Shown here piece by piece: positions 10,230-10,640 of a stretch of DNA of 64,000 nucleotides (within the stretch, counting starts at the first letter, position 1; each line of letters begins with the position of its first letter). Source of the stretch: Prevotella sp. (GTDB lineage: Bacteria > Bacteroidota > Bacteroidia > Bacteroidales > Dysgonomonadaceae). The notes under the pieces are model-generated. The model saw only the letters and a list, made by a program, of their open reading frames with translations. It did not search any database and had not been told where the DNA came from. The stretch lies in NCBI GenBank assembly GCA_031285625.1, contig JAITVV010000029.1, forward strand, positions 1 to 64,000. Direction: 5' to 3'. Both the position numbers and the translations under genes were made by a program.

Positions 10230-10364
10230 AATATGATCTTTGTTTAGTTAACTTGTAGTTAGTTGTTTAAGAGACAGGAAATGTCTTCTTTGAAATAAAT
10301 AGGTTTTTTCTGGGTTCTCACATAGGTTTTTGGTTTTAGAGGTTAATATTATGGGGGTATACGC

Positions 10365-10412
10365 AAAAAATCACCTTATCCGGTAGTTGGGCCTACCAGA
10401 TAAGGTGATTTT
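10365..10412 (-). terminator. Intrinsic terminator/attenuator in the susC leader
   Basis: Arms 10367-10386 and 10393-10412 (20 bp, one position is G-U on the minus-strand RNA), 6-nt loop, U6 tail (A6 at 10365-10370). Confidence 0.85.
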
Positions 10413-10640
10413 ATATATTATTATTTTCCTGTTTTCGGAAAAAAGGTTATATTGTGTGCTCTCTCTATCTATAGATAGAGAATGTGTGTGTGTGTGTGTC
10501 TCTCTCTCTCTCTCTCTCTCTCTCTCTCTCTCTCTCTCTCTCTCTCTCTCTCTCTCTCTCTCTAATAAAATAGGGTTAACCACCAAATTTTCAGTTAAAA
10601 AAATGGCAGGTATTATTGCTTTATTTTGCTTTCTATTCAT
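10371..10640 (-). CDS. Putative leader peptide containing a dinucleotide simple-sequence repeat (poly-ER/TH)
   Basis: ATG with A-rich upstream context, same strand as susC, TGA stop inside the 3' arm of the terminator. Confidence 0.6.
   Translation of the reverse strand: MNRKQNKAIIPAIFLTENLVVNPILLERERERERERERERERERERETHTHTHSLSIDRESTQYNLFSENRKIIIYKITLSGRPNYRIR
10462..10481. repeat. Perfect 20-bp palindrome TCTCTATCTATAGATAGAGA
   Basis: Read directly; contains minus-strand TAG codons in both alternative frames of the leader ORF. Confidence 0.9.
10483..10562. repeat. Compound microsatellite (TG)8(TC)32
   Basis: Counted directly: TG units 10483-10498, TC units 10499-10562. Confidence 0.97.

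Follow-up and report, generated by a model that had tools for sequence, protein, structure and literature searches.

A Repeat-Bearing Leader Upstream of a susC/susD Pair as a Candidate Phase-Variable Transcription Attenuator in Dysgonomonadaceae

Introduction

How could a transporter operon be switched by a dinucleotide repeat that lies upstream of its genes? The question is raised by a stretch of 64,000 nucleotides (nt) from Prevotella sp. (GenBank assembly GCA_031285625.1, contig JAITVV010000029.1, positions 1 to 64,000 of the forward strand; GTDB family Dysgonomonadaceae), hereafter the window. On its minus strand, a short leader open reading frame (ORF) containing (GA)32(CA)8 runs into a terminator-like hairpin ahead of a gene pair for a SusC-like transporter and a SusD-like lipoprotein. 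A preliminary description of this DNA, made from the sequence, read the arrangement as an attenuator whose state depends on repeat length. In the analysis reported here, the locus emerges as probably a phase-variable, translation-coupled transcription attenuator, similar to the pil1 locus of Streptococcus gallolyticus.

Leader, Repeats, and Hairpin

The features of the locus are listed in minus-strand order.

10371-10640, minus strand: leader ORF, 89 codons in the present allele, from ATG 10640-10638 to TGA 10373-10371
10563-10604, minus strand: conserved 14-codon block IFLTENLVVNPILL, directly 5' of the repeat; family consensus IFSxENLxVSxILL
10499-10562, minus strand: (GA)32 tract, read as (ER)n and stop-free in all frames
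10483-10498, minus strand: (CA)8 tract, read as THTHTH; second variable repeat
10463-10480, minus strand: palindrome CTCTATCTATAGATAGAG of 18 nt, which holds both out-of-frame TAG stops
10365-10412, minus strand: intrinsic-terminator-like hairpin with a 20-bp stem, a 6-nt loop, and a T run
10230-10364, minus strand: spacer of 135 nt from the hairpin to the susC start, without a TAnnTTTG motif
7227-10229, minus strand: gene of a SusC-like TonB-dependent transporter (Pfam CarboxypepD_reg, Plug, and TonB barrel; ATG 10229), the proposed controlled gene
5502-7211, minus strand: gene of a SusD-like lipoprotein (Pfam SusD_RagB), second in the operon

Translated from the minus strand, the leader peptide reads MNRKQNKAIIPAIFLTENLVVNPILL followed by (ER)n, THTHTH, and ...RIR*, and its stop codon TGA lies within the 3' arm of the hairpin. 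On the plus strand, Tandem Repeats Finder reports 32.5 TC copies (10499-10563) and 8.5 TG copies (10483-10499) with 100% matches. The two non-leader frames are ended by TAG 10471-10469 and TAG 10467-10465. In the present allele, one frame thus enters the hairpin, and the two others end 55-59 nt ahead of it.

The stem arms of the hairpin occupy 10412-10393 and 10386-10367, and the T's continue to 10365. Its only flaw as minus-strand RNA is a G-U pair, at a position that stays unpaired in the plus-strand RNA. A minus-strand region of 131 nt folds at -45.5 kcal/mol (z -8.09), which was equaled by 0 of 200 shuffles, and the 16-bp core of the hairpin has -26.8 kcal/mol with the tail TTTTTTGCG. The minimum-energy and centroid folds both consist of the terminator and two small independent hairpins, and a competing antiterminator helix was not seen in them. 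An automated terminator scan returned 0 sites at the hairpin, because its rule needs a T run past the stem and four T's pair here with upstream A's. The anatomy given in the preliminary description was reproduced on the minus strand in all its parts, that is, the ATG, the repeats, both TAG stops, and the TGA of the leader and, by folding and Pfam, the hairpin geometry, the G-U pairing specific to that strand, and the susC ATG at 10229.

Two other readings of these positions were set aside. Rfam matches were rejected as chance, since BTnc231 (RF04180) reached 23 bits against a gathering score of 80.4 and several microRNA models matched on the hairpin. The plus-strand ORF 10387-10851 (154 codons) has no Pfam family and amounts to a translation of the (TC)n tract with its flanks; Pfam searches with this ORF and with the leader peptide gave low-complexity sub-threshold matches or none.

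The arrangement suggests the following mechanism. Transcription would start upstream of the leader ATG at 10640, and the ribosome would always read into (GA)32(CA)8 in the same frame. With a repeat unit of 2 nt, its exit frame would follow from the unit count modulo 3. The present allele represents one length class, in which the ORF would cross the spacer into the 20-bp hairpin; a ribosome trailing the polymerase would block hairpin formation, and susC/susD would be transcribed. In the two remaining classes, it would halt at TAG 10471 or TAG 10467, 55-59 nt before the hairpin, which would then form and end transcription at about 10365. Slipped-strand changes of the tract would turn the transporter ON and OFF at random, presumably at high frequency within a clone, and the same cassette at seven other loci of the genome would lead to combinatorial surface variation.

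A Recurrent Leader Cassette

The preliminary description had suggested that (GA)n tracts ahead of susC genes be sought in this and related genomes, and a recurrent cassette was found. The source genome (4.84 Mb, 37% GC, 96 contigs) contains eight long (GA)n loci with 37, 33, 32, 31, 28, 26, 21, and 14+19 units. Genome-wide, other dinucleotide runs do not exceed 7 units, with (AT)7 as the longest, except for the (TG)8 of the present locus; the length of the GA tracts is far beyond chance. About 45 nt before the tract are near-identical in seven of the eight loci, and one frame of this stretch reads ...IFSxENLxV(S/N)x(I/V)LL and then (ER)n. In the seven leaders that share the block, an ATG and an N-terminal part of variable sequence come before it; the leader of the eighth is divergent. 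A SusC-like gene lies downstream in six of the eight loci, with a SusD-like gene visibly next in five of these, and the remaining two precede genes of signal-peptide proteins without a Pfam family. The further tracts of the same genome are given by contig.

C35, 25036-25109: (GA)n tract with the same leader block
C34, 58435-58500: (GA)n tract with the same leader block
C55, 83-144: (GA)n tract with the same leader block
C71, 35462-35517: (GA)n tract with the same leader block
C10, 11097-11148: (GA)n tract with the leader block
C86, 21041-21108: (GA)n tract with the leader block and one AT interruption, directly 3' of a gene with an AraC-type helix-turn-helix end (judged by eye)
C96, 15364-15405: (GA)n tract with the divergent leader

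The distribution of the cassette was scanned in 41 genomes with a degenerate pattern of leader block plus GA run, in which up to 2 mismatches were accepted. It occurs in 18 of the 41: in the source genome, which belongs to Dysgonomonas, and in 17 of the 24 further genomes of that genus. A single genome contains as many as 17 matches. None of the 16 genomes that represent 16 other families of the order contains the pattern, and a reversed-pattern control gave 0 matches. When the exact pattern was searched in one genome per species, at least 114 stretches were obtained. Among the 80 matches listed, the titles name Dysgonomonas species, Dysgonomonadaceae metagenome-assembled genomes (MAGs), and MAGs from termite or insect guts labeled Prevotella sp. 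or Candidatus Azobacteroides sp., together with one Bacteroidia bacterium and Prevotella sp. 10(H).

For the family as a whole, 125 distinct elements were taken from 144 loci, and in 86 of them the clean sequence downstream extends over 400 nt or more. The first large ORF downstream of these 86 complete loci is SusC-like in 28 and of another kind in 51, and none is present in 7. Most of the 51 non-SusC-like ORFs have a signal-peptide-like N-terminus as judged by eye, and from these sequences the cassette appears to serve surface genes beyond SusC too.

Plain tracts of (GA)14 or longer extend further and are present in 33 of 301 sampled genomes of the order (29 of 208 genera). Outside Dysgonomonas, an ATG-started frame enters the tract in 21 of the 25 loci with complete context, a raw count that serves as a lead only. 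Most of these tracts (L146-L175) are followed by signal-peptide genes, many of the entry frames have 20-30 codons, and SE(T/N) often stands just before the tract; by BLAST, none of these loci is SusC-like. The (GA)n leaders outside the genus may form a wider family, which is noted as a lead.

Two side observations concern the repeats themselves. A short-tract variant of 5-12 units, in the MAG labeled Candidatus Azobacteroides sp. MI.4_1, has a second conserved block after the repeat, one frame of which reads DYHSLSNLLTCARNNKSSLITQ. It is represented by L032, L035, L036, L047, L055, L058, L072, L074, L086, L094, L099, L105, L114, L125, L126, L135, and L140; in three of these (L072, L074, and L125), a fusion spanning about 110 codons links one frame to an ORF of about 1450-1570 amino acids. 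Furthermore, a short (CA)n run directly 3' of (GA)n is found in several cassettes (L004, L020, L049, and the present locus).

Signs of Leader Translation

Enough upstream sequence is available for 122 of the 125 elements. An in-frame ATG is present in 120 of these 122, at 78 to 81 nt ahead of the repeat (10th to 50th percentile). The non-conserved region 5' of the block is open over at least 36 nt in the leader frame of all 122 elements, compared with 42% and 38% for the other frames. The 20 nt that lead up to the ATG are rich in A and poor in G, a composition that fits Bacteroidetes translation starts, and 5' of the ATG no further conservation was found beyond this A-richness. Since the leader frame is kept open and ATG-started, it was concluded from these comparisons that translation of the leader is likely to be under selection. 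Within the conserved block, several codons vary as NCT, GNN, or ANC, which resembles conservation of nucleotides.

Frame Design and Two Layouts

A hairpin was counted as strong if it was a single one, lay before the next gene, had a folding energy of -12 kcal/mol or better, and ended no more than 3 nt from a T tract. All 42 complete loci with such a hairpin have at least one post-repeat frame that meets no stop until it is within 15 nt of the hairpin base or past it. Shuffled spacers gave at least one reaching frame in 18.9 +/- 2.8 loci, and in no more than 27 in any of 200 shuffles. One frame reaches the hairpin in 20 loci, two frames in 22, and three in 0. Of the 126 stops, 62 are located 21-246 nt before the hairpin (median 72), 28 inside it, 28 beyond it, and 8 in the last 15 nt. 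The non-random feature is the frame that is kept open. The hairpins of different loci are unrelated in sequence and share a common form of A-tract, stem, and T-tract at a similar position; upstream flanks are at least 90% identical in only 11 pairs. The division into one ON and two OFF length classes that had been proposed holds at the present locus; it does not extend to the family, in which two ON-type classes and one OFF class are the most common design (22 of 42).

A different layout is found in the 44 complete loci without a strong hairpin. Here, 32 loci have one frame without a stop over 250 nt or more (shuffle null 0.85), and in 22 the open stretch reaches 400 nt or more (0.04); this long frame often ends just ahead of the downstream ATG. 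On C55 (L177, 1-2103), the long frame stops at +390 and the ATG follows at +429; on C10 (L176, 223-2900), the stop is at +434 and the ATG at +449. The downstream products are signal-peptide proteins of 509 and 641 amino acids, respectively, without a Pfam family. The downstream gene is SusC-like in 24 of the 42 hairpin-layout loci, whereas this is the case in 4 of the 44 long-frame loci. The long-frame layout mostly precedes a protein family that begins with MKTKL...AQVTIGS...ALLDLK and has no Pfam match; its nearest language-model neighbors carry the phage-tail-like trimerisation domain PF26696 (score 0.95), which is taken as a lead only.

Tract-Length Variation and Allele Phase

The repeat length differs between near-identical sequences. 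The metagenome contig L145 aligns with the present locus over 446 nt with 0 mismatches, and the differences consist of repeat gaps and a 2-nt insertion. Its allele is (GA)25(CA)5 in place of (GA)32(CA)8, and its leader ends at the second TAG (10467-10465), which under the attenuator model would be an OFF frame. Four other ortholog pairs with flanks at least 90% identical have tracts of 72 vs 16, 56 vs 18, 20 vs 78, and 24 vs 56 nt; one further pair with such flanks has equal tracts of 52 and 52 nt. Across the 105 elements assembled on both sides, the tracts have 5 to 55 units (median 21), and their lengths modulo 3 are distributed as 32/32/41. Of the 42 hairpin loci, 24 are assembled with a reaching frame, vs 21.3 expected for random phase. 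Under the model, the assembled alleles would represent a random mixture of ON and OFF states.

With regard to assembly, the contig breaks off within the repeat in 9 of the 125 elements, and N gaps come after the element in 11. The preliminary description had named an assembly artefact as a possible pitfall; the locus is found again in a separate metagenome contig, and contigs of four sequencing runs cover it as far as the edges of the repeat.

Promoters and Transcripts

The motif TAnnTTTG is the Bacteroidetes -7 promoter element. In 42 of 86 loci, its exact form precedes the leader ATG by 15-120 nt; between the terminator (or repeat) and the gene ATG, where the intervals average 227 nt, it is found in only 6 of 82 loci. 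An automated promoter scan reported 7 sigma-70-like sites vs 5.5 expected, by a sigma-70 rule that is uninformative for Bacteroidota.

The contigs of one RNA-library run (X7) leave 10403-10456 uncovered: the one that covers susC breaks off at 10402, within the 5' arm of the hairpin. In three DNA runs, the contigs continue to the repeat. The X7 contigs also span the divergent neighbor, and DNA carry-over is possible. The contig end is therefore only a weak hint, because it comes from a single study and the library may include DNA.

Two candidates were rejected in this context. The conserved block was considered as a Bacteroidetes or sigma-54 promoter and dismissed by eye, as the spacing of TTTG and the downstream T-rich stretch does not fit the consensus. 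An inverton was likewise dismissed, since outside the terminator the best inverted pairs in 10000-11300 are only 73-80% complementary.

Genomic Neighborhood

The region 3' of susC/susD contains genes of GFO/IDH/MocA-type oxidoreductases (4336-5373, 1761-3455, and 214-1689) and a DoxX gene (3470-3955), a gene content that is unusual for a polysaccharide-utilisation locus. A second SusC/SusD pair (11032-15901) is divergent and shares the same 800-nt intergenic region, with neither a GA tract nor a leader block before it. Within the signal-peptide coding stretch of susC, positions 10157-10175 are pyrimidine-rich and 74% complementary to the GA tract. Long-range RNA pairing between the two is conceivable, and the Leu, Phe, and Ser codons may alone account for the complementarity.

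Weighing the Attenuator against Its Alternatives

The attenuator proposed in the preliminary description is supported by the conserved multi-copy family, the open leader frame, the reaching frames, the mixture of ON and OFF alleles, and the L145 allele. Several observations weigh against it. The conserved block displays no excess variation at the third codon position (entropies 0.91/0.81/0.78), and selection on the block at the peptide level is unproven because this signature is absent. Some columns of the block were fixed by the search pattern itself, and the block may be kept at the RNA or DNA level as much as at the peptide level. At the present locus, no exact TAnnTTTG is found upstream of the leader ATG. 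A strong hairpin with a T tract is present in 42 of the 86 complete loci, and the rest have the other layout. Early post-repeat stops are not enriched, with 32 loci vs 34 expected from an AT-rich null. The 42 hairpin loci are paralogues and orthologues and not independent samples, so the counts overstate independence because the loci are related. The contigs of four sequencing runs stop at the repeat, and the comparison with them omits 10457-10573. In addition, close ribosome-polymerase coupling is not known from Bacteroidota.

A frame-dependent switch could also operate without occlusion of the hairpin. Translation of the long frame would then shield the 5' leader from Rho termination or decay, or open the susC start, and the hairpin would be only a pause or stabiliser. 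As a general account, this is unlikely; for the hairpin-less layout, it is likely. The long open frames of the hairpin-less loci (32 of 44 at 250 nt or more), which often end just before the downstream ATG, argue for it, and passages of a review describe attenuation through Rho that depends on upstream ORFs (uORFs) as a known class (PMC12360218). At the present locus, however, the long frame ends in the hairpin, 142 nt ahead of susC, and hairpins of the A-tract/stem/T-tract form are kept at 42 loci despite unrelated sequences. The open frame that reaches the hairpin also bears on the idea of a separate short transcript, a small ORF or small RNA (sRNA) gene with its own terminator, in which case susC would have its own promoter and the repeat would vary the small product only. 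This explanation is distinctly improbable: it leaves the open frame up to the hairpin and the unconserved post-repeat sequence unexplained, and TAnnTTTG is absent from the 135 nt before susC and present in 6 of 82 family loci. The X7 contig end at 10402 would fit it as a weak hint, as would a weak Rfam match to the Bacteroides sRNA BTnc231 over 10367-10485 (23 bits, E 0.016-0.05), but the score of this match is far under 80.4 and the match lies mostly on the terminator stem.

A role of (GA)n that is independent of translation has been considered as well. The tract could act as DNA, by a purine/pyrimidine composition that is prone to triplexes, by its effect on promoter spacing, or as a binding site of a protein, or it could be a binding platform at the RNA level, with the ORF being incidental. 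The nucleotide-level appearance of the conserved block and the 74% complementarity of the GA run to 10157-10175 are consistent with such a role. Signal-peptide codons are pyrimidine-rich anyway, however, and the leader frame that is open in 122 of 122 elements, the ATG at a near-fixed distance, and the post-repeat open frames far above the shuffle null make this explanation very unlikely. Long GA and CA runs are typical of eukaryotes, and assemblies often break at the tracts, as would be expected from an assembly artefact or a contaminating eukaryotic microsatellite. Yet the flanks carry bacterial genes and the cassette has been assembled in many independent genomes, by which this explanation is refuted with next to no probability left to it.

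The translation-coupled attenuator therefore remains the preferred account of the present locus. A broader and more tentative reading, which may hold but is doubtful as a whole, would make the element a portable phase-variation cassette of Bacteroidales. It would control up to 17 surface-protein operons per genome through two layouts, hairpin occlusion and protection by a long ORF, and the 14-codon block would itself be active. The block might, for example, be a nascent-peptide or RNA signal that ties the ribosome to the polymerase, or it might keep the tracts long.

Significance

If the portable-cassette reading is true, Bacteroidales, in which phase variation is put down to DNA invertases, would have a contingency system based on simple sequence repeats (SSRs), with 2^8 to 2^17 combinatorial surface states. 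If the attenuator model holds, slippage would randomly switch the nutrient uptake and surface fibres of Dysgonomonas from insect and termite guts. SusC/SusD systems are common targets of phages and of the immune system. Polysaccharide-utilisation loci would have to be read differently from genomes, because one consensus hides ON and OFF subpopulations, and the assembly breaks at the tracts would be explained. Moreover, the cassette would be a compact, tunable stochastic switch and would offer a natural test of ribosome-polymerase coupling in Bacteroidota.

Comparison with Known Systems

Ribosome-mediated attenuation is known from trp-type leaders. The proposed mechanism has in common with these and with uORF-Rho systems that translation of a short leader ORF decides on transcription into the operon. 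Those systems sense a metabolite or the translation state, whereas the proposed input here is a heritable change of frame. The SSR contingency loci of Haemophilus, Neisseria, and Campylobacter are similar in that a slippage-prone repeat shifts the frame, surface or contingency genes are affected, and ON and OFF alleles occur among isolates; length polymorphism between near-identical sequences and a surface-gene target are both found here. In those loci, however, the repeat lies in the structural gene or in a promoter spacer, while here it lies in a separate upstream leader ORF and the effect would be indirect. The present tracts are several times longer than those of classical SSR contingency loci. 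A further contingency repeat of this class, (AG)12, is described in a Type III methylase gene of Mycoplasma mycoides (PMC3498834).

Phase variation of SusC/SusD in Bacteroidetes is usually explained by DNA inversion, as the preliminary description had stated, and this agrees with passages of a 2025 review that ascribe phase variation in Bacteroides to invertases (PMC11868660, citing Nakayama-Imaohji 2009). In the SusC/SusD and capsule loci of Bacteroides, promoters are inverted between inverted repeats, whereas no convincing flanking inverted repeats are found here. Termination by Rho that depends on uORFs is treated in passages of a further review (PMC12360218), and unvalidated small ORFs in long 5' untranslated regions of B. 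thetaiotaomicron are mentioned in passages of Ryan et al. 2020 (PMC7366714). Neither repeat-driven leader attenuation nor Dysgonomonas repeats were found for Bacteroidota in a literature search that covered the main texts of openly accessible papers, in line with the earlier statement that this mechanism was not known to be described for TonB-dependent transporters in Bacteroidetes.

The closest likeness is to pil1 of S. gallolyticus. According to Danne et al. 2014 (PMC3894217), leader length depends there on GCAGA repeats within the gene of the leader peptide, longer leaders allow the ribosome to destabilise a premature terminator, and this attenuation logic was shown genetically. Both systems combine a repeat in a leader ORF, a premature terminator before the structural genes, a subset of repeat classes that reach the terminator, and a surface product. 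The unit in pil1 is 5 nt long and the locus encodes a Gram-positive pilus, whereas the unit here has 2 nt and is repeated up to 55 times, ahead of SusC/SusD and other surface genes of Bacteroidales. Unlike pil1, the present family, as known from its sequences, combines a conserved 14-codon block, many copies per genome, and a second layout without the hairpin.

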